Shown: piece after piece, positions 1,164-16,034 of the stretch
How positions within the stretch are numbered: the stretch's first letter is position 1
Layout of the letters: each line of letters begins with the position of its first letter
Source of the DNA: an uncultured bacterium
Lineage (GTDB): Bacteria; CSSED10-310; CAZUFC01
Reading direction: 5' to 3'
NCBI GenBank assembly: GCA_964619725.1
Contig: CAZUFC010000163.1
Span: 1 to 16,597, forward strand
DNA length: 16,597 nt
Translations under genes and position numbers: made by a program
The notes under the pieces: model-generated
Databases searched by the model: none
Told to the model about the DNA's origin: nothing
The model's input: the letters and a program-made list of their open reading frames with translations, nothing else

Positions 1164-1284
1164 CCGTTGGATTCTGATTGAATGCGCTGCGATTCCCCTG
1201 CAGGCGGGACGCCTGCGGTCCCAGTATCTCTCAACGACGAAACCCTTGCATTCAACGGTTGCCGCTCCTTCGACAATCCAACGG
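1164..1284. repeat. REP-like GC-rich hairpin inside nested inverted repeats, just downstream of the Rpn gene
   Basis: The core hairpin is GCAGGCG-GGA-CGCCTGC followed by GGTCCCAG (1200-1224). Outer pairs are CCGTTGGATT 1164-1173 with AATCCAACGG 1275-1284, and TTGAATGC 1178-1185 with GCATTCAA 1248-1255. Confidence 0.6.
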
Positions 1285-1313
1285 AATGCTTTTGATGACA
1301 TAGCCGAATTTAT

Positions 1314-1559
1314 TTATTCAAACATCTCCTCTATTTCGTGCAATGTAGTAATAAAAATTGATTTTTTATGCAAACTTTTGAGAAAAGCGAGGTCATTAAC
1401 CGCGTTTATCTTTTCGATCAGTTGTGAGGGAACCCGACCGAATCTTGCCTCCAATACATCAATAGTGTTTTCTTTGACCATTCCGACGTTTCCCTCTTTT
1501 CTGCCCTCTTCAATTCCCTCTTTTCTGCCCTTTTCCATCAATTGTTCCGCTATGCTCAT
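1314..1559 (-). CDS. Putative in-frame internal small Rpn protein (RpnS-like, 81 aa)
   Basis: In-frame ATG at 1559 (MSIAEQL), preceded by the SD-like sequence AAAGGGGGTG and then AACTT. This position matches the internal start described for Rpn proteins. Confidence 0.6.
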   Translation of the reverse strand: MSIAEQLMEKGRKEGIEEGRKEGNVGMVKENTIDVLEARFGRVPSQLIEKINAVNDLAFLKSLHKKSIFITTLHEIEEMFE

Positions 1560-2309
1560 AAGTTCACCCCCTTTATCGGCGGAGATGTTTTTTTCGACCA
1601 GTTTTTTCAATTCTTCAGGCTGTAAGTCATCCCTTACGCTGAAGATATACTGTATAAAAACTATGAACCAATCTTCCTCAAGCCTGCTTTCCATTGCCGA
1701 TTTCAACAAGCGGAGTATTTTTTTTAGTCGCGGGACGAAATCAGTCCGCTTTATATATTTCAACATCATTATCGCAGCCCTGAGAAGCTCCAGCCCCTTC
1801 AACTCCTCTTCAGTCAAAACGGTAAGGTCATCAAGAATAAACTGAAAATCAGGAACATAAACTTTCAGCTCTTCTTTGGGGCAACTGACATGGCTATGCA
1901 AGTCGGCGCCGTATTTCCATTTCTCGGTTCCGTGATATATCAGGACCGGTATGATTATGGGCAGAGGATCGCCGGGAGACTGCCTCCAATGAAGGTTCCA
2001 TATTTTCAGCATGTAGTTCAGCAATTGAAGAACCGTTTTTTTGTCCGAATAGCTTTTATGTTCAAAAAGAAAATAGACATAGCCGGTTTCGTCACCTATT
2101 CCGACTTCATACAGAAGATCGGAACGGTATTCTCGATTAGCCTTTTCGATAAAGCTGTCTTTTGATATACGGATATCGTCGAGGTTGATTAAATCACGAA
2201 CATTTTCCGGTATGTAGTTTTTCAGAAAATCACGGGCGATTTCTTTACTGCCGAGTATTTCCTTTATGAATTTATCATGCGGGTTGGGGACTTTTTCCAT
2301 AGTATGCAT
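1314..2309 (-). CDS. Rpn family recombination-promoting nuclease / putative transposase (YhgA-like, PD-(D/E)xK fold) with a DUF4351-like C-terminus
   Basis: Motifs PHDKFIK, SFI...SDLLY, YFLFEHKS and LPIIIPVLIYHG...W, then MSIAEQLMEKGRKEG repeats and the tail LEARFGRVP. The true start may be the ATG at 2300. Confidence 0.93.
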   Translation of the reverse strand: MHTMEKVPNPHDKFIKEILGSKEIARDFLKNYIPENVRDLINLDDIRISKDSFIEKANREYRSDLLYEVGIGDETGYVYFLFEHKSYSDKKTVLQLLNYMLKIWNLHWRQSPGDPLPIIIPVLIYHGTEKWKYGADLHSHVSCPKEELKVYVPDFQFILDDLTVLTEEELKGLELLRAAIMMLKYIKRTDFVPRLKKILRLLKSAMESRLEEDWFIVFIQYIFSVRDDLQPEELKKLVEKNISADKGGELMSIAEQLMEKGRKEGIEEGRKEGNVGMVKENTIDVLEARFGRVPSQLIEKINAVNDLAFLKSLHKKSIFITTLHEIEEMFE

Positions 2310-2657
2310 CTTTTCCCTGAATTTCCGTAAAACATTTCAATTTCACGGGAAGTCTTCGCATTTTGTTTCAACGAAGGCTCCCTTTTTTTATTTTAACGTC
2401 GCCGTCTCTCATTTTCAATAAAACAACCGTTAGGATTATACCTCCAGCATATCCTTTTTTCTTTTGCTTTCGACCTTCTGACATCATTCACATTTTTTCC
2501 GATCATGATGACTTTTCATTTGCTTTCGCGACGCAGCTCCGTCAAGAGCAGCCCACTGCAACACCATTAAAACGAAATTGTGGTAATTCAAATTGAAGAA
2601 CATTGTCAGTCCGTCGTCATTGACCATGGTTGGGGTTTGAGTCATAGGCGAAAACAG

Positions 2658-2733
2658 CGCCAGTCCATAAACTCGAGTCCAGATTCAAATTTCGATTCTG
2701 GACCTGCGCGACGGTTTATAATCCAGAAACGAG
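2658..2733 (+). repeat. Copy A of a 76-bp dispersed palindromic element
   Basis: Aligns without gaps to the reverse complement of 16226-16301 at 58/76 identity (counted by hand). It has an internal GTCCAGA/TCTGGAC stem. Confidence 0.8.
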
Positions 2734-2994
2734 CCAGATTTCGCAAAACAAGAAAAGCAAGGATTTATGAATGAGGAGCGCCTGTCCCGCTGAAGGTTTG
2801 TCGGCATAAGCGGATTATTTGACATGCTTTGCCTGAGCGAATCCAAAGCCTGAGGCAGTATTAGGGAAAATCAGCCTTTTATGGAGAGAACAGAATATGA
2901 AGCAGCGCTTGAAGGTAAGGCGATATGGAACCTCGTAACAGGGGGACTGATCAAACCGGAACTTCTTTCAAAACTTTTGACAGTTTGTTTCAGT

Positions 2995-3054
2995 AATCGG
3001 TATCGGAATCGGAATCGGGGTCGGGGTCGGAATCGGAATCGCAATCGCAATCGA
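2995..3054 (+). repeat. Degenerate hexamer tandem repeat (NNTCGN x10)
   Basis: AATCGG TATCGG AATCGG AATCGG GGTCGG GGTCGG AATCGG AATCGC AATCGC AATCGA, followed by AACAAA. Confidence 0.9.
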
Positions 3055-3296
3055 AACAAATAATTACGAGAAGATGTATTTTGTCTTTATGAGATTTTCA
3101 AGGTTTCTGGATTATTCAAGGCTGCCAAAATTGTAACCTCGAAACACGAATACTTGATCAATGCGCGATATTTGAATTTCCGCTGAAAGAAAAACAATAC
3201 ATAATCATCTTATATAAAACAGGGACGGTTTCATGCGCGCAGACCGTCTGATTATTCGAATGGAATTTCCAATTTTCGCTCAAAGGAGGCGTCAAG

Positions 3297-4730
3297 TTGA
3301 AACAAAAGAATACAAAAAGCTCAGGAATAAAGCTGGTAAAGACGATGGATGAAATTTCTTTTGGAAGCGGTGAATATCTGGAGATCCTGCCGCTTGTGGA
3401 TGAATCGCCGGTGAAGTATTTGTCGAACCGGGGCGGCGGCAATTTGTGGGCGGAGTCTGCTAATTTCGTTCATACAATACTAAAATGCCTTGAAGATGAA
3501 AATGAAATATTCAACATTATGCCTGTGACGCTGGAATTCGCACCCACTCTTGAATGTAATCAGCATTGCAATGAATGTCCTTACAGGGTCGCCAAGAGGA
3601 AGGCCGGGTTGTCCAGGGTTCCGGCGGGACAATTTATCGAATCGGAGGATGGTGTGACGACGGCTGATACCGCTACGGCCCGGTGGATACTCGAATCAGC
3701 CGTGCTGGCCGGCGTCAAAGGCGCATTGTGGACCGGCGGCGGCGAACCGACATTGTGGAAACCGCTGCCGGAGATGATCCGTTATGCCGCCGAGCTGGGA
3801 ATGGCCAACGGGCTTTATACCAACGGCATACAGACCGGTTTTTATCCTGCGCTTGCCGAACTGTTTGCAGCGCCCGAAAATAAGATGGATTTCGTCAGGG
3901 TAAGTCTGAATGCCTTATCGCCGCATACCGTGAAAAAATTTTCCGGCATTTCTCCGAAAATGGCTGAAAAGTCCCTGTTAGGATTAAAAGCGCTGCTCCA
4001 GGCGAGAACCAGGTATTTGCCGGAATATTACCTGTTGAACGTGCGTCCGCCGTCCATACAGGTCAGCGTCATAACTGATGAAAGAAACGTTGATGATCTT
4101 CCTCTGATATGCAGCAGAACAGCCGAATTAATGAACGATTATTCAGCGACGTATCACGGCAAAGAGGACAATTTCGTTGTAAGACCATTAACCAGACATT
4201 GCCGAAAAAATTATTCGACGAAAGACCATGAAGACTCGGTAATCAAAAAAATATTGACACACTGCGGAACAAACGGTCAATGCCGTAAAATCATCGAAAA
4301 CGCCGGCATGAAAACAGCCCTGGGTTTCGGATTGGACCTGATAGAACAATGGGTTTATTCAACTTATGAAGACATAATCCGGGCCGAATATAAACGAAGA
4401 GACCTTTGCTGGAGCAACGGTCTGTTCCTGACGGCAGGTCCGGATGCAGGCGTATATTCATGCTGCGACCGGAACTGCTATCCCGCCTGGTCCGTGGGCA
4501 ACCTGAAAAATCAATCAGTGGAAGAAATCTACCGCAGCGAAAAAAGGAAAAAACTGCTGGACAGAATACATAAACATTCCTGCAACCACACCGTATGCGA
4601 AGCCACCTGCCGAACAGGAAGACTCAACGGAATAGCCAGAGCCCTCATGTCCGGAGAACTGACAGACAAGCACATCGAATTCATTCGCAACATATCGTTG
4701 AAGAATCCCGGATGCCTGCTGTTGTCATGA
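3297..4730 (+). CDS. Radical SAM protein with a C-terminal SPASM/twitch auxiliary Fe-S domain
   Basis: SD AAGGAGG before the TTG start. Core motifs CNQHCNEC (CxxxCxxC), TGGGEPTL, YTNG and RVSLNA. The C-terminus has C...GPDAGVYSCC...VGNLKNQSVEEIY...C-x4-C-x3-CR. Confidence 0.92.
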   Translation: MKQKNTKSSGIKLVKTMDEISFGSGEYLEILPLVDESPVKYLSNRGGGNLWAESANFVHTILKCLEDENEIFNIMPVTLEFAPTLECNQHCNECPYRVAKRKAGLSRVPAGQFIESEDGVTTADTATARWILESAVLAGVKGALWTGGGEPTLWKPLPEMIRYAAELGMANGLYTNGIQTGFYPALAELFAAPENKMDFVRVSLNALSPHTVKKFSGISPKMAEKSLLGLKALLQARTRYLPEYYLLNVRPPSIQVSVITDERNVDDLPLICSRTAELMNDYSATYHGKEDNFVVRPLTRHCRKNYSTKDHEDSVIKKILTHCGTNGQCRKIIENAGMKTALGFGLDLIEQWVYSTYEDIIRAEYKRRDLCWSNGLFLTAGPDAGVYSCCDRNCYPAWSVGNLKNQSVEEIYRSEKRKKLLDRIHKHSCNHTVCEATCRTGRLNGIARALMSGELTDKHIEFIRNISLKNPGCLLLS

Positions 4731-4759
4731 GAGGAATCGCGAATAAAATAAAGACTTTA

Positions 4760-5420
4760 TCTCATTTTATAATACTTTTGTGGTGCTGACGCAGAAAAGG
4801 CGGATTTATTGAAGGTCGCAAATGTTCTTCTTCCTTCAGTTGTAACTCATAAGCAGTTTCACCCCCGATTTTATGAACTTTCGCGGCTCCGACTTCCTTT
4901 CATCCGGCTATACCATTGGGAATTAAGGTCTCCAAAATCTTCTCAACGACATCCGGTCAAAAAACCGTGCTTAATATATTTAATCGCCTCTTCAACTTTA
5001 TCTTTCTTTTCAGAATCAGATTTAAAGCATATGTATGGATCATATTTACACCACAAAGGTTACCGGGGGCAACTTTCGTTGAACTCTACTTCACAATAAT
5101 TCTCCCTGATTATTGCAATTTTATCCTGGTCGTAAACCACTTCTTCCGTTAAGAACTCGATAGCTCTGAAAGCGTGCTGATGAAAATTTATTAACATTTC
5201 CGTATCTCCCGGAAGGTCAATGAATTGCACATACTTTTTTCTGCTGTGAGAAAAAACAATGGCAATAAAAGATGCTGATGACGCTCTTCAGGAAATCACA
5301 ATTTTTTGCTTCTCGTCAAGACCCGCCATTACCTGCTTGCCCGGTCTAGTTTCAAAAGACTGGTATTTTCGCTTTTTCGTATTAGTTTTCCGTCATGTTT
5401 GGGACCCTATGAGCGGAATC
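4760..5420 (-). mobile_element. istA: Degenerate IS21-family transposase (IstA) fragment
   Basis: Minus-strand translation through stops gives KRKYQSFETRPGKQVMAGLDE...FIAIVFSHSRKKYVQF...FHQHAF...EEVVYDQDKIAIIREN...PYICFKSDSEKKDKVEEAIKYIKHGFL...KVH...EEEHLRP, which follows the IstA core motif order. In-frame stops lie at 5288-5290, 5060-5062 and 4943-4945, and there is a frameshift near 4895. Boundaries are approximate. Confidence 0.85.
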
Positions 5421-6857
5421 CATGCACAGCATTGACTGCATCGCCACGGCTATATCATCCGGTAAAATGGGGACGACGCCGTCGCCTTGCTGTTCGCTGC
5501 CTATCAGGTAAACGTCGTCGATTCCATCCATGATGATTCCTTTTAACCGGGTAATCGGCAACGGTTGGTCCAATTTCATTTCCCCGCTTTCAAGCGCCTT
5601 TTGTAATCTGCTCAACGATAAAACGATCCGGCGTATTTCCGACGGCTGCTGGTACGCCAGGCATGCATTCCAGTCATCGGCAGTCGCTCCGGCGTTGAAA
5701 AAGGATGCCGCCAGCCCGATTAATGCCGGAACGAAACACATTTTTCCCTGGAAAGCTGATTTAATCACTATCGATAAATCATGGTTCAAGCATCTTATAC
5801 TCGAAAAATATTTCATCTTCTGAACCTCCTTCAACAGCGCCCAAAGCAGCCTCCCTTTCTTTTTCGACGTTTCCGCTTTCGTCAGTTTCTTCACTTCCCC
5901 GAACCACGCCCAAAACGCCCCCGACATCGCCGGCGCCGCCGTCCGGAGGATCGCCGTAATATTTTTTATCTCTTCCGAGTCGATCATTATCCCGATATAC
6001 AATCGATTGAAATGACTCCCGATAACATCCTCTAATGATCTGACAGCAGTTTCTCCTCCTATTTCAAGCCTGTATCGCCGGCTTGTCTCTTTTGGCGCGA
6101 CCATGTCGTTGTGAGGGCGGGAAACTTTGGCGCCGTCCTCCAGCGATTCAATGACTATCGTTTCAAAATTGACCGGACCGTCGTTAATATGGACTGGTCC
6201 ATGAAAATCGCCTTCGCATGTTACAGTAAAAAGCCTGGTGTGTTCCCCCATTTTATTTAAGGTATCTCTCATTGCGCCGGGCGAAAAGGCAAATACGCCG
6301 TCAATCCTCACTCGATCCAGATCATCATCGGGAAGCAAAACTTTTCTGCCCACGGTATTGCCGTAGGAATAATCTATCATAATGACCCTGGAGTCTTCAC
6401 CGAAGGCATCACGGAATGATTTGACCGCTTCAGCAACCTGCCTGTTTGCCCAATCGGACTGACTATCGCCTTTCAGCCAAAAATCCATCGTGCCTACATC
6501 CATGTCTACATTCAATATGGGATGCCTGTTTTGCGGGTCCCATCCTGGTTTGTAATCATCCACAACTTTGGCCCGGGGTTCGATTCTTGTTGCAAGCTTC
6601 ATAAGATTCTCACCGTTGGAATTTAATCCCGGCACGGTGATTATGAGAACGGGCGGCTCTTCCTGCATGCGTCTCCGCCGTTCTTCTTCCTGTTGCCGCC
6701 TTCGCCGCTGTTCCTCTTCAAGACGACGCAGATATTCCCATTGCCGCCATTCATCGTCCCACGCTTCTGCCGTTAACCACCAGTTGCTTAACAGCAACAA
6801 ACCTGTGACTATCAATAATACTGTTTGCTTGAAGTATTTGCTTTTTTCATGTTTCAC
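5382..6857 (-). CDS. Exported protein: signal peptide, charged helix, alpha/beta-hydrolase-like domain and the start of a DUF1598-like region; probably 3'-truncated
   Basis: SD AGGAGG before the GTG start, which overlaps the upstream gene by 11 nt. The signal peptide ends in AEA. ITVPGLNS and IMIDYSYG resemble the oxyanion loop and nucleophile elbow. The last ~15 codons run into istA-like sequence. Confidence 0.7.
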   Translation of the reverse strand: MKHEKSKYFKQTVLLIVTGLLLLSNWWLTAEAWDDEWRQWEYLRRLEEEQRRRRQQEEERRRRMQEEPPVLIITVPGLNSNGENLMKLATRIEPRAKVVDDYKPGWDPQNRHPILNVDMDVGTMDFWLKGDSQSDWANRQVAEAVKSFRDAFGEDSRVIMIDYSYGNTVGRKVLLPDDDLDRVRIDGVFAFSPGAMRDTLNKMGEHTRLFTVTCEGDFHGPVHINDGPVNFETIVIESLEDGAKVSRPHNDMVAPKETSRRYRLEIGGETAVRSLEDVIGSHFNRLYIGIMIDSEEIKNITAILRTAAPAMSGAFWAWFGEVKKLTKAETSKKKGRLLWALLKEVQKMKYFSSIRCLNHDLSIVIKSAFQGKMCFVPALIGLAASFFNAGATADDWNACLAYQQPSEIRRIVLSLSRLQKALESGEMKLDQPLPITRLKGIIMDGIDDVYLIGSEQQGDGVVPILPDDIAVAMQSMLCMDSAHRVPNMTEN

Positions 6858-9255
6858 TTGCTTCCTCCTGCCGATGCGGTTTTCTGACCAGGATATATCG
6901 TCTCAAGCTGTATTTCCCGTTTTTGTAAACGACCTTTTCGTCCGTTTCCTGGAACGGTTCCATTCCGAAAAGAGCCTCAAAATGGATTTTGCCTTCTTCC
7001 AGGTCCGCCACAGGAATGCGGATTTTGCTTGATGCCAGGACAGTCCAAATCCAGAGACAGAGCAGTAATACTATAAGAAGAATAAGACCCCACCGTATGT
7101 ACCGGGGAATATGAGCCCCGGCGGCGCCCTGTCCGCCTTTATTTCCTGTTCCTTCTTTCGCTTCACCTCCTCCGCCTTTGTCCGCCGTATCCTTGGGGCC
7201 TCCGGCAACGCCCGGACTCGTCTGCGAAGTTTCAAAACCGCTTCCTCCAGCATTGCCGTTCATACTCGTCTCCTTGCCTGCCGCCTCCATTTGTTCCTCC
7301 CGATCACGCTCACCGCTTTCCCTTTCTTGTTTTTCCCTTTCCCTCTTCAGCTTTGCTTCCTCTTCCCTTCTCCGTTTTTCCAGCTCTTCCCGTTCCCTCC
7401 TGGCTTTCTCTATTCGCTCCTTTTCTCTTCGCGCTTCTTCCCTCCTCTGTTTTTCCAGCTCTTCCTCCCGTTTTATCCTGGCTATCCTGGCTTCCTCGAT
7501 TTTAAGCGCCTCCTGGAAATAGTTGCGCACATTCTTCTCAATCTGCTCCTTCATGTATCCGAATAAAGAGGAATACTTCACTGAAGCATAAGGCTCAACA
7601 TTTGATGATGCGCCCCAGATCAGACTCATCCGGTCTTTCGCCCATTCTTTTTCCACATTGTCCGTATAATGGGCTATCCATTGGCCTACAGTCCTGCTTT
7701 TGTGATCCCTGTAAACTTCGCCTCGAACGATGTCTTCATATTTTTTCACCAGGTCTGACTGTCCCTCCCAGGCCCTTTCACCCTCAGAAATAAGCTTCTT
7801 CGTCGTTGATAATACGAGGTTCTGCGCGTCATCCAACAGGATGCCCGCGTCGTATCTTTTGTCCGGGCTCATGATGAAAGGGAGGTCCAGACACTGCTCG
7901 AAACTGTGGACTCCGAAGTTTTCATGCCTTACTTTCTTCAGATAATTTTCTGAGAGTTTCCAGGTACCCTCGTCCAAAGGTTTGAAATATTCTTGCAACT
8001 GTTTTCGAGCGATGACCTCTCTGACATCCTCTAAAGGCCTTCTGACAGCGCTGCCTAAACGCTTTTTTATGGAACTTCTTACTTCCTGATTCGACTCCGC
8101 CAGGTTTCGCAGAAATACCGTAAAATTATCTTTTTCTTCAGGATTGGAAATTCGGGAAGCATAAGAACTTATCGCCGAATCGAGGAAAAAAGGGAAAAAA
8201 TGTTTTGCGCAGAGCTTAACGCTGTCGTTGTATGATTGATGCGCCGCAGTGTTTTTTAAAATAATATTTTTAATTGTTTGTTCTTCAGGTTCAAATTTAA
8301 AACTCTCACAATAATCCCTGAAAAATTCACCCGATTTCCGCCTGGACGTCGTTTGAATTTCTGATTCTATGAAAGAAAAAATTCCGAAGATATTTTGATG
8401 CGGTTCAGCCTTCTGTTCATATCGTTTTCTTGCAGACTCCACATTCTGTTGTACATGATCATAAATGTCAGACGGTAAAATGATCCCATGAGGTATAGGC
8501 GCATCTAAAGCCTTTCGCTGATTAATTATCTGATTCTGAACATCTGCAATTATAACATCAGCGAAAGATGCCGTTTCTTTTTCCACCTCCTCAAGCAACG
8601 AAACGCCGGATTGAGGATGGATACTTTTTTTCACCTTTGTTTTCAGAGCATTCATGAGTTCAGAATTCCATCCTGCAGTTTCAATATGCTCTATCTCCTC
8701 CTCCGTCGGGTATACTCCTTCGGCCAGGTCCTCGAGTTGCCTGTCGATCGCCTGTTTACGAGCGTCCTGGAATATTTTCGACAAACGGCGTTCCGTATAG
8801 ATTTCTATCTGAGTATCACATTTCTCTCCGAATTTTTCTTCGCATTCTTCTTTCAACCACTCCAGGGTAAACCATCTGGAAGATTCATCCGGGGGATTCA
8901 AGCTTTGATGTATTCTTTTCAGGTCTTGCTCCAGCGACCGGAGAAGCAGGACCCTCAAATCATCCTCAACAAGAGTCCTGCTTTCTTCTGCTGTTTTATG
9001 AGCATTAGGATTCTCCGATATACCTGATGAAATTTCAGGAATGAAGTCCCGGGGATCATTTTCAAGGACCTTTTCCACAGCGACTTTAACCGCCTGACGT
9101 GCGGCATATCGAATGCTTATCTTTTTCGCTTCCTCATCCCGGCATGCCGCTTGACTTGAAAATATTGCGGTTACAAGCAGCAGAGCAGTGATTGCAATTG
9201 GAAACAGATTGGAGAATCCCGGCATCAATCTGTGAAATGTATGTTTATTTTTCAT
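6847..9255 (-). CDS. Large exported protein (802 aa): duplicated helical domain, E/R/K coiled coil, Gly-rich linker, C-terminal TM helix and short tail
   Basis: ATG at 9255 follows the SD AAGGGAG, 14 nt after the upstream stop. It has an N-terminal signal peptide (SSQA), REEE-type repeats and the TM segment WGLILLIVLLLCLWIWTVLA. Confidence 0.85.
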   Translation of the reverse strand: MKNKHTFHRLMPGFSNLFPIAITALLLVTAIFSSQAACRDEEAKKISIRYAARQAVKVAVEKVLENDPRDFIPEISSGISENPNAHKTAEESRTLVEDDLRVLLLRSLEQDLKRIHQSLNPPDESSRWFTLEWLKEECEEKFGEKCDTQIEIYTERRLSKIFQDARKQAIDRQLEDLAEGVYPTEEEIEHIETAGWNSELMNALKTKVKKSIHPQSGVSLLEEVEKETASFADVIIADVQNQIINQRKALDAPIPHGIILPSDIYDHVQQNVESARKRYEQKAEPHQNIFGIFSFIESEIQTTSRRKSGEFFRDYCESFKFEPEEQTIKNIILKNTAAHQSYNDSVKLCAKHFFPFFLDSAISSYASRISNPEEKDNFTVFLRNLAESNQEVRSSIKKRLGSAVRRPLEDVREVIARKQLQEYFKPLDEGTWKLSENYLKKVRHENFGVHSFEQCLDLPFIMSPDKRYDAGILLDDAQNLVLSTTKKLISEGERAWEGQSDLVKKYEDIVRGEVYRDHKSRTVGQWIAHYTDNVEKEWAKDRMSLIWGASSNVEPYASVKYSSLFGYMKEQIEKNVRNYFQEALKIEEARIARIKREEELEKQRREEARREKERIEKARREREELEKRRREEEAKLKREREKQERESGERDREEQMEAAGKETSMNGNAGGSGFETSQTSPGVAGGPKDTADKGGGGEAKEGTGNKGGQGAAGAHIPRYIRWGLILLIVLLLCLWIWTVLASSKIRIPVADLEEGKIHFEALFGMEPFQETDEKVVYKNGKYSLRRYILVRKPHRQEEASET

Positions 9256-9269
9256 TGATTTTTCTCCCT

Positions 9270-10162
9270 TTAAGAATATAAACGCAAAATGGAATTCAAT
9301 TCCTGCCAGCATTCATCCAAAAACTCATAGTCATCCCCGGTCAAAAGATTTTTCAATTTTTCGTTGAGTTTTTTATAAAAACTTTCAGCCTTTTCACGTC
9401 TCACACGATCTGAAGTATTCGGATCAAGCATTTTCACGACCAGATTCTTCAGTTCACGGTCCTGGTCTTTCATATCGTATTTCCAATCGTCATAGAGAAG
9501 ACGGATCAACTGCATTTGAAGATTCACAACATCATTTTCCAATCCCTCCGTAAAATCAATGATCCTGTTATGAATTTTCCTGCGGTTTTCAGGAAAGACG
9601 ACATCCGGTTGCGCATCCGCTATATTTCCGAGCCTGATAATTTCCGAATCTGAGATTTTATTCCATCGTTTCACTTGATTGGAGTTTTTGCCCTTTATGC
9701 CCGATTGTTCGAGAATATTTTCGTACATGCCGTTCATAAAAAGCTGTTGTTTACCGGACTTCTCAAAAATTTTATTTGTTTCCTTGCACAAATACTTGAA
9801 ATTGTCATCGCTCAACGTCAATTTATTTCTCCTGACCAGTGAAGCGTCTGAGAACATAGGGATTCTCAATTTTTTGATTTCTTCGTTCTTAATGTTTTCG
9901 AAAGCCAGCAAAAGCTCTAGCAACTGCAGTTCAATTATTTTTTTGTTGAATGCCAGCCGGGAATTAGATGGAGGACCTATAACGTCGATGACTTTTTCAT
10001 AACTGTATTTGTAGGTGAGTATTTGAACGATGATGACGAAAGTAAGAATCAGCACCAGGGGCAGGAGAACCTGCACCAGGATATTCCAAGTCGATTCTTC
10101 GGGTCCGCTGTCTGCATTTTTTCCCGAATCCAGGCATTCGGCTAAATTGTAATTTCTTCCAT
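9270..10162 (-). CDS. Single-TM partner protein in the MotB/ExbD/ZorB gene position, with an all-helical soluble domain; the 5' end appears frameshifted
   Basis: The frame is open from 10166 to 9270 (DGRNYNLAECLDSG...EESTWNILVQVLLPLVLILTFVIIVQI). The ATG at 10162, preceded by the SD-like AAGGGTG, is one base out of frame. The in-frame alternative is GTG at 10076. Confidence 0.75.
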
Positions 10163-10166
10163 CTTT

Positions 10167-11609
10167 TTACACCCTTCGGCTGAACATCTTCAGAATTCGC
10201 CGTCTTAAAGAAGGTTTTCCATTCTCCGCCATTGAACTTGCCCACACTTTTATCGTTTTGCCGCCGTTATCGGAAAATTTTAACGCCCTGTTTAACGCCT
10301 TTTCGAATTGATCAAACGACTGGCCCTGTCTGCGCGCATTATCAGTGAAGGTTTTTTCAAGTTTTTCATATTTTTTTTCCTGCTCTTCGTATATTTGTTG
10401 TAACTTGAACTGTAATCCTTCCAGGCGATCATTTAAGGCGTCGTTCCTTTTTTCCAAACGTACAAACTTCGCCCAACCTTTATTCGCGGTATCATTTAGT
10501 TCATCCATTTTAACTTTTAAAGTTGCATCCCCCTTTTTCACGTCTGCTTGAACTTTTTGAAGCAAACCGGCGAATCCAATCAAACTGCCGCTCAGTTCTT
10601 TATTTGCATCCTTCATGTATTTTGAGAGCTCTTTCATTATATTTGACAATGCCTTCGTCTCATTCACAGCCTCCCTGTTCGAATCAACCAGCTTAACCAG
10701 CAATCCGTTAGTTTCTTCCATTTTATCCGCTGTTTTCTCCATTTTTTCGTTTAATTCAGCGAGAATAACTTCTTGACTCGCCAAGCCTTCTTTAATGGAT
10801 TTACCCAGTTCTGCAAAATAACCAGCAAGGTCCATCTTGTTCAATTGCTCTTTAAAATTACCCAACGAATCGGCAATAGCATTAACTTCCGTGTTTGTGT
10901 TTTTCAGACTATCGGAGAATTCGTCCACATACATCTGAACTTCAGTCAATGAACTTGAAAGTCTTTTATCGGACGGCGGCAAAGGATTCTGCAAAGCCGA
11001 ATCCGGTTTCTGTAAAAGAGTCCTGGCGGTCGTCGTTACGAGCGGTGCGGCTATAAAAGACATGGCGACGCCGGTGAAAGTGCTCAGCAGCGCGGTCCCG
11101 AATGCAGTCACCAGAATGGTCGTACTGTCGGCTTCGATGCCTTCTCTCATGGAGTATCCGATCAATAAAAAGGCGTAAAGCGTGCCGAGCAATCCGAGTT
11201 GTATCCATGTATTTCGATAGTTTTTCGGAAACGGCATGTGATTCATTTGTCTGATTGCCGAACAGCTTGTAATTTTCCCCAGCATAAGAAGAATCGATGT
11301 CCGTGATATGAAAAAGAAGAACATGAGCAAAATAAGGGGCGTTATGGTGGAGGCATCCTGGCTGAACTGATACAGCAAATCGTAATAATCTTCCGGTATT
11401 CCGATCCTTTTGAAGAAATTGAGAACGGCATCGGGCGACATATTCAATTTCTGCCTGATCAATTCCGTTTCACAGACGGCGCGATTAAAATTAACCGTCC
11501 AGTAAGCCAGTGAAGCCGCCGTCAGGGCAACGGCCGTCAATGCAATTATTCCTATGAAGAAATAATATCCGCTTTTCAATTTTAACTTCTCATTTTTATC
11601 CCTGGACAT
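10167..11609 (-). CDS. MotA/TolQ/ExbB proton-channel family protein with a long C-terminal coiled coil (ZorA-like architecture)
   Basis: SD AAGGAGG. Four hydrophobic segments. Channel motifs QLGLLGTL and AFGTALLSTFTG. About 270 aa of heptad-rich tail follow the last TM segment. Confidence 0.85.
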   Translation of the reverse strand: MSRDKNEKLKLKSGYYFFIGIIALTAVALTAASLAYWTVNFNRAVCETELIRQKLNMSPDAVLNFFKRIGIPEDYYDLLYQFSQDASTITPLILLMFFFFISRTSILLMLGKITSCSAIRQMNHMPFPKNYRNTWIQLGLLGTLYAFLLIGYSMREGIEADSTTILVTAFGTALLSTFTGVAMSFIAAPLVTTTARTLLQKPDSALQNPLPPSDKRLSSSLTEVQMYVDEFSDSLKNTNTEVNAIADSLGNFKEQLNKMDLAGYFAELGKSIKEGLASQEVILAELNEKMEKTADKMEETNGLLVKLVDSNREAVNETKALSNIMKELSKYMKDANKELSGSLIGFAGLLQKVQADVKKGDATLKVKMDELNDTANKGWAKFVRLEKRNDALNDRLEGLQFKLQQIYEEQEKKYEKLEKTFTDNARRQGQSFDQFEKALNRALKFSDNGGKTIKVWASSMAENGKPSLRRRILKMFSRRV

Positions 11610-11624
11610 TCTTTGCTCCTCCTT

Positions 11625-12932
11625 TTATAGTTTTGATAAAAGACTGCGCGCCATATCGGAATAATCTCCGCCTATCCTTAATACTTCCATGAAGTCCTGC
11701 CTCGCCGGTTCTTTCCTGTTGTAAAGCTGCAGGCATAAACCCCGGTGAAAATATGCCGCGGCGAATCCGGGCGACTGTTTTATAGCCCGGGTGAACAAAT
11801 CGATCGCTCGCTTAGTATCGCAGTCCGCATAACATCTGCCCAAATAATACAAGCTTTCATGGGATTGAGGGTTCTTCTCCAGAGTCGCCTTCAAATGGGC
11901 TATCGCCTCCTCCTTCTTTCCCCTGCGGAACGCAACTTTTCCCAGTTCCAGCCCCGCTTCCCAACTGTCCGTCTTTTCATATTCCCGCCGGAAGCATTCC
12001 TCCGCTTCAGCAAGTTCCATCAGGTATAGATGCGCCTGGCCCAACTGATGCAGATTGTGAGCGGCAGGGTTCCGTTCGACCCTTCTTTTCCAATACTCCG
12101 TACCGGTCCGTAACTTTATTTTCAATATATGTTTTGACTCGGGATAACCCGAAAGAAACTCCAGATAACCCGAAAAAGTATCCTGCTTTAGAGCCCTCTC
12201 AACAGCTTCAAGCTCCCTGAGTCCTCTTTCGGCTTCTCGCCTGGCGCTTCCCGGATACTCGCCGTATTCGGCAATGTAAGCCGCATAAGCTTCCTTCGTT
12301 TCCTGTTCAACCGCCCGTTTCCAGCATATCTCCTCTGCTTTTCTTATCAGTTTTTCCTTCTCCGGATGGTTGGGAAATTCATCAATAAAATTGGTCAAAT
12401 CGTCCTCATTACCCGACTTGACCGCCTTTTTATACTTCAGGTCCATGATCAACCGCTGAGCCTGCAGAACCCGTCCGGATGCAGAACACTTTTTGATGAA
12501 GCCTGAGTATGATTCGACGCTGTTTTCCGTCACCGCTTTTCGCCACAACACTTCGCATGGACTTACAATCGATGCTGTATCCGTATTTTTGCCGCTTTTT
12601 CCTTCCTTTTCCGGACGACGCTCTTCAGCTTCAGGCATCGTAACAATTTCATCTTCATGTCGCTGCGATTCCAGAGCTGGTTGAACTTCCCGTCGAGAAG
12701 AGGCCGGCGATATTGTCGGAGTAACGGCAGGAACAGGCGCAGAGACGGTCGGAGTCTCCTGTTCCATTGGTTCGGAAGTTTGTTCAGAAGTGTTATTCGT
12801 CACTTCAGTTCGTTTCGGGGCAACATCATGACCGGACGACGGAACTCGCCGGGCACAACCGTTGCCGAGACATGTCAAAATGACCTCGACGATTATCAGA
12901 AGCGAAAAAAGAATCTCTTTACGTGTCGGCAT
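11625..12932 (-). CDS. Tetratricopeptide-repeat lipoprotein
   Basis: SD AAGGAG. A hydrophobic leader ends in the lipobox-like LGNG-C26, followed by a P/T/E-rich linker, four short helical repeats (W/Y-x2-A...Y-x2-F/Y-x3-YP-like) and about four TPRs (LGQAHL, LGKVAF, LGRCYA, RGLCLQ). Confidence 0.88.
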   Translation of the reverse strand: MPTRKEILFSLLIIVEVILTCLGNGCARRVPSSGHDVAPKRTEVTNNTSEQTSEPMEQETPTVSAPVPAVTPTISPASSRREVQPALESQRHEDEIVTMPEAEERRPEKEGKSGKNTDTASIVSPCEVLWRKAVTENSVESYSGFIKKCSASGRVLQAQRLIMDLKYKKAVKSGNEDDLTNFIDEFPNHPEKEKLIRKAEEICWKRAVEQETKEAYAAYIAEYGEYPGSARREAERGLRELEAVERALKQDTFSGYLEFLSGYPESKHILKIKLRTGTEYWKRRVERNPAAHNLHQLGQAHLYLMELAEAEECFRREYEKTDSWEAGLELGKVAFRRGKKEEAIAHLKATLEKNPQSHESLYYLGRCYADCDTKRAIDLFTRAIKQSPGFAAAYFHRGLCLQLYNRKEPARQDFMEVLRIGGDYSDMARSLLSKL

Positions 12933-13661: not shown

Positions 13662-15926
13662 TCACCTTCTATTTTTTATCATCAACATTTCAGGCGATTC
13701 AGCGGTCACGGTCAGTTTATTCAGCGCTTTATGATTCTTTTTATAGAACTGCAGAAAAGCTTTCGATGCCAGTGTCCTTCCATGCTCAAATATTCTTCTG
13801 GCCCCGAAGGAGGTTACCTGTCCCTTTATGCCTTTCAGGAGGGTTTCTCCTGTGCCTTTTATGACTGTTATGCGGACGTTGGGGTTGTTGAAACGTTCTG
13901 CTGCGGATTTAATGGAATCTTTTACTGATTTTTCTATGATGGCTGCGAGCGTTTCTTTACTCAGCGGATCGAACAGTATGGGCGTTCCAATGCGGCTCAG
14001 GAATGCAGAGCTGAGCATGTTTTTAATTTCCGTTTCCACTTTTTTGCTGATGTCCAGGCGGTTGGGCGTGCCGGCGAAGCCCATTGATTTTCTGACGGAT
14101 TCGTCGAGGCCGTCGGGGAGGTTCATGGTGAAGGCTAAAATGAGGTTAGCGCAGGAGAACATGGAGCCGGCAGCGCTTTGGGCTTCACCCAGGTCGAGGG
14201 TTTGCAGGAAAAGGTCGGCCAATGCTGATCTGACCTGTGGAGCGGCATGGTCAAGGTCGCTGATTTCCATCAGGGCTCCGGCGTGGTGCTTGGCGGCCTG
14301 TTCCAACCTGCCGCTCTGGTAACTTCCGACAAGCCCTCTGCCTGACCCCAGCAATTGAGCGGAAGCTGTATAATAATCGGGAAGACTGGCGGCATCTATG
14401 TTGATATAAGGTATTTCCAGCCGTTCGGCCAGCATCCGGGCGCTTTCTGATTTGCCTGTACCCGGAGTGCCCTGGGTGCAGTATCTTATCGGTTGATGAA
14501 GAGGCCTGGTCAGAATTTCCATTTGCAGCCTCATGGTCAGTTCATCTAATGCTTCATCCTGTCCCAGCAATTTCTGTTTGAGAAACGAGAGCAAACCACG
14601 GTCAGTCAGGACCTGAATAAACTTTTCCTGAACCTTTGGGGAACGTTTTGCTCCCGGTTTGTCTCCCAGTCCCGTCAGAGTGACGTTATTGCCGGCTATT
14701 TTTTCAGCGAAACCGGATAAATCTTTCGTTCCGATTTTACGCCAGTTATTGACCATTCTGGCGGCCACGGGCGTCAATATGCGTTTTTGTTCATCTTCTG
14801 TTCTGCCTGATAAAAAGGAATTCGTTTTATCGCTTAAACTGCGCACGACTTCCGACGGCAAACCGCCTCCCCTGCAGCCGCAATTTGCTATGCTGAACCG
14901 GATGAGGTTCTCTATATTCAGCATATCAGTGGGAATCGTCCGAACAACCGGAAAAAGCGGGTCGCTTTTGCCTCCCTGACCGCCGTGAAACACGGACTGC
15001 AGGTCGTCGAAACTGCCCGTGAATATGCCCGGCAAGTTCAGCGACGACAGGGACCTCAGTAAAGCCCGCGTCTCGTTTCCGATCTCGTAAGGATTCGTTC
15101 CCATGCTCATCGCGGCAGCAGGTACCACCACATACCCCGGAGCTTTCCTGAATATTTCCGGCAGCCGCCTTGTCGCTGCAGAAGGCGCGGTATATACGCC
15201 CAAAGAACTGTCCGCCTGCATGCAAACCTCCGCTATGGCCGACAACGCAGCAGCCTCCAGCGCCGGATAATCGCTCGAAACAGCGACCGACAATGACGCC
15301 TCAAGATACTCCACCGTCTCATAAGCCCAGCTCATTAAAGACTGCAACGCATCATCCTCGCAATTCGATATTCCCATCACAGGCGACAGGCTATCCGCAT
15401 ACGGCTCATATTTCTTGATCAAATCTCCTTTCGAAAGCCTCTGAGGCGAATGCTTCTGCATCTTCCCCGCTATGTCGTTCAATCCCCGCAACTCCGCTTC
15501 CAACCTGACTATCCTCGCTCCCGAACATCCATTCACCGGAATCTCTATGCACACCCATAATGAACTCGTCTTCCCGTCAGTGTTCTCCACGGAAGGTAAT
15601 ATGAACATATCTCTGCTTAATTGCGCCATGCATGCGGAAAACAGATGTACCGGTATGCGCGCTTCCCACGGCGCCCTTAACATCTCGCATTTCAAATGTA
15701 TCGCCGTCCCCTGCAATATATCGCACCGCATGGAAAGAATTCCAGCGACGCCGACGGATTCGCCGGAAGAACACGCTGAAAATATGCCGCCTCCCGCATT
15801 AAATTTTACCTTCAATCCTGTTACAGCCTCAATCACACCCGATGCCTCCTGAAGAAAGCTCATAAGCGACATCCGCTCTGACCGCGAACTCGATGAATTG
15901 CTTCTGCTCGTTTTACCTATGTTCAC
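13662..15926 (-). CDS. ClpA/ClpB-like AAA+ protein (754 aa) with a degenerate first module and an atypical Walker B
   Basis: A strong SD (AAGGAGGT) precedes the GTG at 15926. The second-module motifs appear in ClpB order: [54 protein letters not shown] and FGARRI. Confidence 0.87.
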
Positions 15927-16034
15927 TGCTTTAACCTCCTTTTTGGATTCAAATTCAACCCGTCTCATAATGTTAGACGAAAGAGACACGCTTTTTTTCA
16001 CTTGTTTCGGAAGAAGGACGGCGAAGGGATCGGG

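Follow-up and report, generated by a model that had tools for sequence, protein, structure and literature searches.

What kind of envelope complex, if any, is encoded by five head-to-tail genes on contig CAZUFC010000163.1 (assembly GCA_964619725.1) of an uncultured bacterium of the GTDB lineage CSSED10-310; CAZUFC01? A preliminary description of this 16,597-nucleotide (nt) contig, the whole of which we call the window, had read the genes as an undescribed trans-envelope machine built around a non-canonical motor subunit. We find that the gene set is conserved and fits no described system, and that 'motor' is unproven because the partner of the motor-like subunit lacks the motor aspartate. With a probability of about one in two, we regard the locus as one representative of a rare and hitherto undescribed accessory module of four genes, stator-like and trans-envelope in character, to which a variable fifth gene is attached. 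The five open reading frames (ORFs) are co-oriented, as first reported, and all lie on the minus strand. In the direction of transcription they are g1 (11625–12932; 435 amino acids (aa)), encoding an exported tetratricopeptide-repeat (TPR) protein that is probably a lipoprotein; g2, termed A (10167–11609; 480 aa), encoding a likely membrane subunit of the MotA/ExbB/ZorA superfamily; g3, termed B (9270–10162), encoding a single-pass protein of an unannotated family, with a frame-broken 5′ end; g4 (6847–9255); and g5 (5382–6857; 491 aa from a GTG start), encoding an exported chimera.

Four genes are kept in order

Related loci, numbered with the prefix L, were collected by pattern-seeded scans that used a 14-sequence A alignment for the metagenomes and yielded six loci from species-representative genomes and 16 from metagenomes; a profile of each window gene was then run against all ORFs of these loci. 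The order g1–A–B–g4 recurred wherever the contigs reached. A g1-type gene lay upstream of A in 17 of the 18 loci with room for it, the exception being L020 with an unmatched ORF at that place, B followed A directly in 18 of 18, and g4 followed B in 15 of 15. The counts include both L018 and L019, which share three flanking proteins at 100% identity and are probably one locus sampled twice, and, as the loci were located through A, they tell that A relatives keep their partners, not how frequent the partners are without A. One further candidate, L007 (Sandarakinorhabdus, E 4e-4), matched no module profile and was dropped as a coiled-coil false positive. The carriers include metagenome-assembled genomes (MAGs) of Roseivirgaceae, Thermoanaerobaculia, Pseudomonadota and Planctomycetota as well as Pelagibius sp., and the carrier genomes span four phyla (Bacteroidota, Alphaproteobacteria, Acidobacteriota, Planctomycetota). 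Pairwise identity of the relatives is about 20–35% (blastp E 1e-12 to 1e-38), and preservation of the four-gene order across phyla at this level of divergence implies selection on the set.

The fifth gene behaves differently. Nine related loci extend 1.5 kb or more past g4, and in four of them (L002, L003, L013 and L014) g4 is followed by a family that we term g5b. The conserved unit is thus four genes, with a fifth that is optional and, in the window, chimeric and short; the five-gene operon originally described holds for g1, A, B and g4, which co-occur in the same order elsewhere, and not for g5. In two distant carriers, L003 (16560–20959) and L013 (9473–14071), g5b is followed by three further co-oriented genes that the two share at 34–43% identity (143/138 aa, 474/470 aa and 832+/916 aa) and that match nothing in Pfam, NCBIfam or PADLOC, so that an extended eight-gene form of the module is possible.

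The module is distributed sporadically. The A profile matched one of 41 genomes around that of the window, one of 81 in the order to which the Pelagibius genome belongs and one of 201 in the phylum of genome G044, the match being the source genome itself in every case; these searches scored at most 8–20 candidates per genome, which makes the absences soft. The membrane part of A (residues 1–215) had no match in a plasmid collection. Such a scattered distribution suggests an accessory module.

The A subunit and its likely superfamily

An exhaustive profile search with A across 1.84 billion proteins returned 290 representatives at E ≤ 1e-3, of which 162 were at E ≤ 1e-10 and 53 at E ≤ 1e-30; 98 sequences, taken from the 150 matches listed of these 290 after short or multi-domain ones had been omitted, made up the family alignment. 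PF01618 (MotA_ExbB) was matched by 58 of the 98 at E ≤ 0.01 (best 1.1e-9), whereas A of the window on its own reached a sub-threshold E of 0.025 (14.8 bits against a cut-off of 22.9; residues 137–194). The genome carries five canonical PF01618 genes elsewhere, and alignment of the A family to a profile of these paralogues with hhalign gave a probability of 85.2% (E 6.1e-6; matched columns 123–183), pairing the motifs LGLLGT and ALxTT with A residues 138–143 and 173–177. The AlphaFold2 (AF2) model of A has a mean predicted local distance difference test score (pLDDT) of 77, with values of at least 88 in residue blocks 11–150 and 171–200 and of 80–89 in 151–170. In this model residues 84–201 (11007–11360, minus strand) form a three-helix membrane core equivalent to that of ExbB, TolQ and ZorA. 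Compared with solved structures by VIA, this core aligned with type II ZorA (8vvi_C; Z 8.5, rmsd 3.2 over 96 residues, 19% identity), type I ZorA (8qyh_A; Z 8.2), TolQ (9kq0_A; Z 8.2) and ExbB (9ddo_E; Z 7.9); over ZorA, TolQ and ExbB together Z was 7.5–8.5 for 96–115 residues, with the top matches tied within 1 Z, and a Z of about 8 is within the chance range for helical bundles and therefore not decisive. Because the PF01618 matches of the family, the hhalign result and the AF2 fold alignment agree, A likely belongs to the MotA/ExbB/TolQ/ZorA superfamily, the evidence for which exists only in family-level tests. The earlier assignment of A as a MotA/ExbB-type subunit with a long coiled-coil tail is accordingly supported by the family matches, hhalign and the fold, and not by the PF01618 match of the window protein itself.

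Conservation within the 98 aligned relatives is concentrated in a small set of positions. D85, S87, P126, G139, G142 and S176 are invariant (98/98), T172 (98%), T143 (97%) and T177 (88%) are nearly so, and N40 and T90 are kept in 84% and 81%; D85 is the sole conserved acidic residue of the family. The conserved pattern includes Gly-x-x-Gly-Thr in one core helix and a Ser/Thr pair in the next, that is, a polar ring. Compared with ExbB, A has an additional N-terminal transmembrane helix (residues 13–47), followed by a loop of about 40 residues that its charge pattern would place in the periplasm, and the cytoplasmic loop between the core helices is only about 20 residues long. The remainder of the protein (residues 202–480; 10170–11006, minus strand) is a helical, K/L/E-rich tail of about 280 aa that is predicted to be cytoplasmic, modelled by AF2 as helices over 213–479 at a pLDDT of roughly 45–80. 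A motif permitted measurement of its length in 51 of the 98 relatives (median 255 aa), and the tail matched coiled-coil and ZorA-tail models only. All other profile matches of A were likewise of coiled-coil type and fell in the tail, and a sequence search of solved structures with the A profiles returned only coiled-coil noise.

The B partner and the break in its gene

The protein encoded directly downstream of A belongs to a single-pass family with no detectable tie to known stator partners. None of 15 B proteins matched Pfam ExbD, MotB_plug or OmpA, and B of the window had no match in NCBIfam or PADLOC; of seven homologues from a large database, two are named 'hypothetical protein' and the other five are nameless. 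The AF2 model is all-helical (pLDDT 84.5). Foldseek found nothing for it at E ≤ 0.001, the best match of an exhaustive VIA search (Z 6.6) lay below helical noise, and a sequence search of solved structures with the B profile gave nothing meaningful. The membrane helix (10014–10088, minus strand) opens with the pattern W-N-x-x-x-Q-x-x-x-P, read as WNILVQVLLP in the window; its Gln (Q21) and Pro (P25) are invariant in 15 of 15 sequences, and a motif scan found no Asp or Glu at helix residues 3–20 in 25 of 25. ExbD carries a conserved Asp at the corresponding position of its membrane helix. A conserved Asp is present in the membrane helix of MotB, TolR and AglQ/S as well, according to the accessible part of one source (PMC9389320), and in ZorB both the membrane Asp and the peptidoglycan-binding domain are essential, according to that of another (PMC11890865). 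The charges flanking the helix in 19 B sequences (K+R 35 and D+E 62 in the 15 residues before it; K+R 48 and D+E 44 in the 15 after it) mildly favour an N-out orientation, which would be opposite to that of MotB. The claim that all accessory proteins are extracytoplasmic is therefore not upheld for B, for which these charges are ambiguous.

The gene for B was first delimited as 9270–10162. This interval is 893 nt long, which is not divisible by 3, and the frame that starts at ATG 10162 reads MEEITI and then stops at a TAG (10144–10142) after six codons. The frame of the long ORF is open from just past the TAA of A (10167–10169) to GTG 10076, from which an intact ORF of 268 aa runs to 9270; over 10166–10077 the conserved B frame contains no ATG, GTG or TTG. 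The stretch upstream of GTG 10076 nevertheless has counterparts in the N-terminal tails of 14 homologues, to which it aligns, and holds the conserved Trp-Asn of the family before the membrane helix. Conserved B coding extends in frame to at least 10133, and homologues have 15–41 residues ahead of the conserved Trp. Because the conserved frame begins upstream of GTG 10076 and has no start codon there, we place a frame break near 10142–10147, where the frame of ATG 10162 stops and the conserved frame goes on from 10145; on the simplest reading of the sequence, ATG 10162 would be the ancestral start of B. The same microbial-mat study includes a second sample, a contig of which spans 9932–10227 with 0 differences and 0 gaps and carries the same break, which is hence not an error private to one assembly. 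Both sequences are assembled contigs of low depth, and the first of the two runs may itself be where the DNA of the window comes from. B may still be made by translation from GTG 10076 or by recoding. With B frame-broken at codon 7 and g5 short, the copy of the operon in this genome is probably impaired; g1, A and g4 are intact. The single-pass protein envisaged at this position thus stands, and an intact gene starting at ATG 10162 does not.

A and B share one reading frame, separated by a single TAA (10167–10169) and 30 sense codons (10077–10166) without a start codon. A fusion of A and B by read-through of this TAA was considered and rejected, A and B overlapping out of frame in the homologous locus L002, and we judge the shared frame to be a coincidence of the frame break. 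The reported spacings (15, 4 and 14 nt, and one overlap of 11 nt) were reproduced with ATG 10162 as the start of gene 3 and ATG 9255 as that of gene 4. The latter is the second Met of g4, giving 802 aa, and the Met at 9312 would give 821 aa. Shine–Dalgarno (SD)-like motifs, described before as present at each gene, precede g1 (AAAGGAG), A (AAGGAGG), g4 at 9255 (AAGGGAG) and g5 (GGAGGA); for gene 3 the motif upstream of ATG 10162 is weak, and none occurs upstream of GTG 10076. A scan for promoters and terminators found sites no more numerous than in shuffled sequence.

These features of B bear on the question of whether there is a motor-type complex at all. A could be a degenerate MotA-like anchor for a coiled-coil scaffold, with B and g4 as unrelated operon-mates and the window copy as a decaying, functionless remnant. 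Such an account would fit a B that has no detectable kinship with any B-subunit family and no Asp, an A whose sequence matches among solved structures are noise, a gene 3 that is frame-broken in two samples, and a g5 that ends where its relatives run 260–640 residues further, with no homology downstream. It leaves unexplained why the channel residues of A are stricter than an anchor needs (G139, G142 and S176 at 100%, T172 at 98%, T143 at 97%), why the membrane Gln and Pro of B are invariant and why the gene order is kept across phyla, and g1, A and g4 are intact here; we consider it quite improbable.

Envelope partners, relatives and a possible role

Flanking the A–B pair in the operon are two conserved envelope proteins. 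In g1, TPR_16 (E 2.7e-12) and further Pfam TPR families match residues ~290–430, and in g1 of the window, as in 10 of 13 homologues, a lipobox-type Cys, judged by eye, closes the hydrophobic segment at the N-terminus; g1 is for this reason a probable lipoprotein, in agreement with its first annotation as a TPR lipoprotein. In the product of g4 a signal-like stretch at the N-terminus is followed by some 600 helical, conserved residues, a charged Gly-rich linker, a C-terminal transmembrane segment and a short tail, with hydrophobic segments at residues 10–28 and 716–734; of 11 homologues, nine have the signal-like N-terminus and nine a hydrophobic segment in the C-terminal third. Searches of Pfam, NCBIfam, PADLOC, the ESM Atlas (no usable match) and, by sequence, the PDB found no match for g4. 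Past its membrane segment, a conserved tail of about 50 residues is shared between the window (6850–7040) and L006, L012, L018 and L022, with the pattern hydrophobic-x-V-x-D-hydrophobic ... K/R-x-G, and is predicted by topology to be cytoplasmic.

The g5-type proteins are exported and vary in length (401–883 aa) and in domains. The C-terminal end of g5 in the window (residues ~367–489) matches just the first 90–120 residues of the g5b family, the relatives continue 260–640 residues past its stop, and no further g5b homology lies downstream. Residues 114–253 match a single exported 324-aa protein (E 1e-24), and residues 60–300 fall near the alpha/beta-hydrolase clusters Lipase_3, DUF676 and DUF900 in the ESM Atlas (scores 0.90–0.93), which are leads only towards an alpha/beta-hydrolase-like domain at residues ~114–253. 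The view of gene 5 as an exported hydrolase-like protein thus holds for export and is a lead for the hydrolase part. Directly upstream of the module in L003 (2058–7448) lies a gene for a 1796-aa RHS-repeat protein, of which segment ~821–977 resembles g5b (E 5e-8 to g5b of L014); this hints that g5b-type domains may be shared with polymorphic-toxin-like proteins.

A TPR lipoprotein together with a long, membrane-anchored, periplasmic protein loosely recalls CpoB and TolA, and raises the alternative that the locus is a force or export device of the Ton, Tol or type IX secretion system (T9SS) kind. Here the core would energise g4 as a long periplasmic transducer, and g4, together with g1 as an outer-membrane TPR lipoprotein, would export, place or activate g5-type cargo. 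The TolA/CpoB-type arrangement of g1 with g4 (signal-like N-terminus, helical stretch and membrane anchor) would suit this role, as would the exported, variable g5-type proteins, including the window protein with its fused lipase-like alpha/beta-hydrolase domain, and the recurrence of a g5b segment in the RHS-repeat protein of L003. With ExbBD/TolQR the module shares the aligned LGLLGT and ALxTT motifs (hhalign 85%) and a fold similarity of Z 7.5–8.2, in the chance range noted above. The core-helix loop of A is, however, about 20 residues and not a large domain as in ExbB and TolQ, A has a long C-terminal tail that an export device leaves unexplained, B is unlike ExbD or TolR, its lack of an Asp argues against a canonical motor driven by the proton-motive force, and neither TonB/TolA nor TolB or Pal occurs at the locus. 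The module is not accompanied by any conserved secretin, porin, TonB-box receptor or known component of secretion, no TonB/TolA C-domain was matched, and g5b occurs in fewer than half of the loci with room for it (4/9). GldLM/PorLM share with A and B an A-type subunit that has a cytoplasmic helical C-terminal region and a partner with a long non-OmpA extramembrane domain. The GldL model matched the tail of A only, and weakly (E 0.0068; 16.3 bits against a cut-off of 68.3), B had no GldM match and is all-helical, A has four helices and ExbB-type motifs, and no other T9SS genes are present. Weighing these points, we regard an export or force-generating device as a rather poor bet.

In build, the module works most like ZorAB, by analogy, through its tailed ring-type subunit and single-pass partner. 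Shared features are the three-helix core and long helical cytoplasmic tail of A, the Ser/Thr polar ring, a gene for a single-pass partner immediately downstream, a sporadic, accessory distribution and the best structural match of the A core, which is type II ZorA (other ZorAB structures are 8qyd and 8vvn). There are also differences. B has an invariant Gln in place of the Asp that is essential in ZorB according to the accessible part of PMC11890865, and none of 15 B proteins matches an OmpA-like, peptidoglycan-binding model; A differs from ZorA in the additional N-terminal transmembrane helix and the putative periplasmic loop that bears the invariant Asp; as conserved partners the module has a TPR lipoprotein together with an exported protein of about 800 aa whose family is unassigned; and PADLOC and NCBIfam found no ZorC, ZorD or ZorE in the window or in the flanks of related loci. 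Against the ZorA_1 model A of the window scored 19.4 bits (cut-off 190), and 11 of the 98 A relatives touched NCBIfam ZorA_4 at E ≤ 1e-3. A partial likeness is also seen to an operon of Planctomycetota–Verrucomicrobiota–Chlamydiota (PVC) bacteria that, in the accessible part of PMC12204202, is proposed as a new motor-driven transducer and consists of a TPR, a tolQ-like, two tolR-like and a vWA gene. That operon too is motor-like and headed by a TPR gene, but its tolR-like gene is present twice and its vWA protein is tethered to the membrane, as far as that part of the source describes it, where the module has one B of an unrelated family, no vWA and another large partner. As first stated, no OmpA/peptidoglycan-binding, ZorC/D/E or TonB/TolA model matched any of the five proteins, and no full known model (Zorya, Tol/Exb, Agl–Glt or GldLM) fitted in the Pfam, NCBIfam and PADLOC searches. 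The literature consulted, largely without subscription journals and without supplements, contains no description of this gene set, and none of the terms MotA, ExbB and Zorya came up in a search of the accessible part of Kaur et al. 2020 (PMC7159879).

The neighbourhood had been thought to favour defence mildly, with Rpn, DUF4338, restriction and insertion sequence (IS) remnants listed as neighbours. Among the 12 flanking ORFs scanned, only the Rpn/YhgA-type gene of those listed was recovered (Transposase_31; 1314–2309, minus strand; E 2.3e-57; a 243-aa ORF overlapping it on the opposite strand is probably spurious), and DUF4338 and restriction genes were not found. The other window neighbours are a radical-SAM/SPASM gene (3297–4730, plus strand; 477 aa), which has weak viperin-like PADLOC matches (E 9e-8), and a 779-aa ORF (13662–16001, minus strand) located 730 nt upstream of g1 on the same strand. 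The last ~300 residues of the latter resemble the AAA+ D2-like ATPase of ClpA/ClpB (AAA_2 E 1.4e-9; ClpA E 1.3e-25, partial), its first ~470 residues have no match, PADLOC DolB and PDC-M37B match weakly (E ~1e-8), and such a neighbour is absent from related loci. Flanks vary between loci. Conflict-type genes occur in L003 (RHS), L008 (TIR), L004 (MazF) and L020 (PIN and PDC-S70), and in the metagenomic locus L014 caspase-domain, CHAT-domain and TraB/PrgY-like proteins are encoded immediately upstream of the module (1183–8362); FGE-sulfatase/PEGA proteins, likewise counted as conflict-type, flank it in L019, L020 and L022, and housekeeping genes (OTCase, FTHFS, Nuo and peptidases) are also common. 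At E ≤ 1e-5 only 4 of 58 flanking proteins of related loci match PADLOC and many are housekeeping, so the case for defence from the neighbours is weak.

These data bear most directly on a further alternative, a Zorya-like anti-phage or anti-invader sensor in which A–B would sense envelope perturbation through g1 and g4 and signal through the A tail to effectors encoded elsewhere or not recognised as such. The ZorA-like build with its top structural match (Z 8.5, 19% identity), the relatives that touch ZorA_4, the sporadic distribution and the conflict-type neighbours, to which the Rpn and AAA+ genes of the window may be added, are all consistent with it. Speaking against it, neither ZorC/D/E nor any further nuclease or helicase is kept alongside the module, B has neither of the two features essential in ZorB (in the accessible part of PMC11890865), PADLOC matches among the neighbours are few and other neighbours are housekeeping, plasmids have no match to the membrane part of A, and the ZorA matches of A in the window are confined to the tail, a region that can score through its coiled-coil composition alone. 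We hold a sensor of this type to be unlikely, if less so than the two alternatives above.

Under the reading that we prefer, that of an accessory stator-like module, we infer the assembly of A with B, its stoichiometry, the topology of B, the coupling to g4 and g1 and the function as follows. A, which retains the channel-lining Gly/Thr/Ser hairpin and adds to it an N-terminal helix and a putative periplasmic loop bearing D85, may surround single-pass B as the outer ring of an inner-membrane complex of the stator type, with its ZorA-like tail extending into the cytoplasm. This core could couple to the exported, membrane-anchored g4 and the TPR lipoprotein g1, so that the whole would act as a trans-envelope transducer. 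The carboxylate might be supplied by A through D85, a key acidic residue on the ring (A-type) subunit having a precedent in GldL; alternatively, a conformational change might be passed on without ion-driven rotation. The output would be an accessory one, perhaps in conflict or in defence of the envelope, and not part of housekeeping.

Several points weigh against this reading. As B has no Asp, the canonical protonation cycle cannot operate and any coupling must be non-canonical. B is tied to A as a putative partner by adjacency and single-pass form only, and the flank charges of B lean towards an orientation opposite to that of MotB. The window A is sub-threshold for PF01618 when taken alone, its structural Z scores are attainable by chance, and Foldseek returned nothing for A at E ≤ 0.001 (E ≥ 0.09 overall and ≥ 0.12 for motor families). 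No cytoplasmic effector that could be a target of the tail is conserved with the module in related loci, and the rarity of the module relies on absences that are soft.

A bolder version of the stator-like reading, which we think doubtful, is that of a new stator class. B would have exchanged the ion-carrying Asp for an invariant Gln and may be N-out, D85 on the ring at the periplasmic face would be the only invariant carboxylate, and the complex would couple ions in a way unlike MotAB, ExbBD, TolQR and ZorAB or would signal without rotation, in a mobile accessory role, for example in dealing with variable exported cargo (g5 or RHS-linked) or in detecting attacks on the envelope.

To our knowledge, all described flagellar-stator relatives share an ion-binding Asp on the central subunit. 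The A family keeps the channel residues of the ring, yet its partner lacks both this Asp and an anchor to the cell wall, and two conserved envelope proteins of unassigned families accompany it. The curated models of Pfam, NCBIfam and PADLOC do not recognise B or g4, so that current annotation misses the module, and because a cultured carrier exists (Pelagibius sp., L003), the question is directly testable. If the module is active, the 5:2 architecture could be coupled differently from the known stators or could serve as a non-rotary transducer, and the module would be a new trans-envelope system beside Mot, Ton, Tol, Agl, Gld and Zor.

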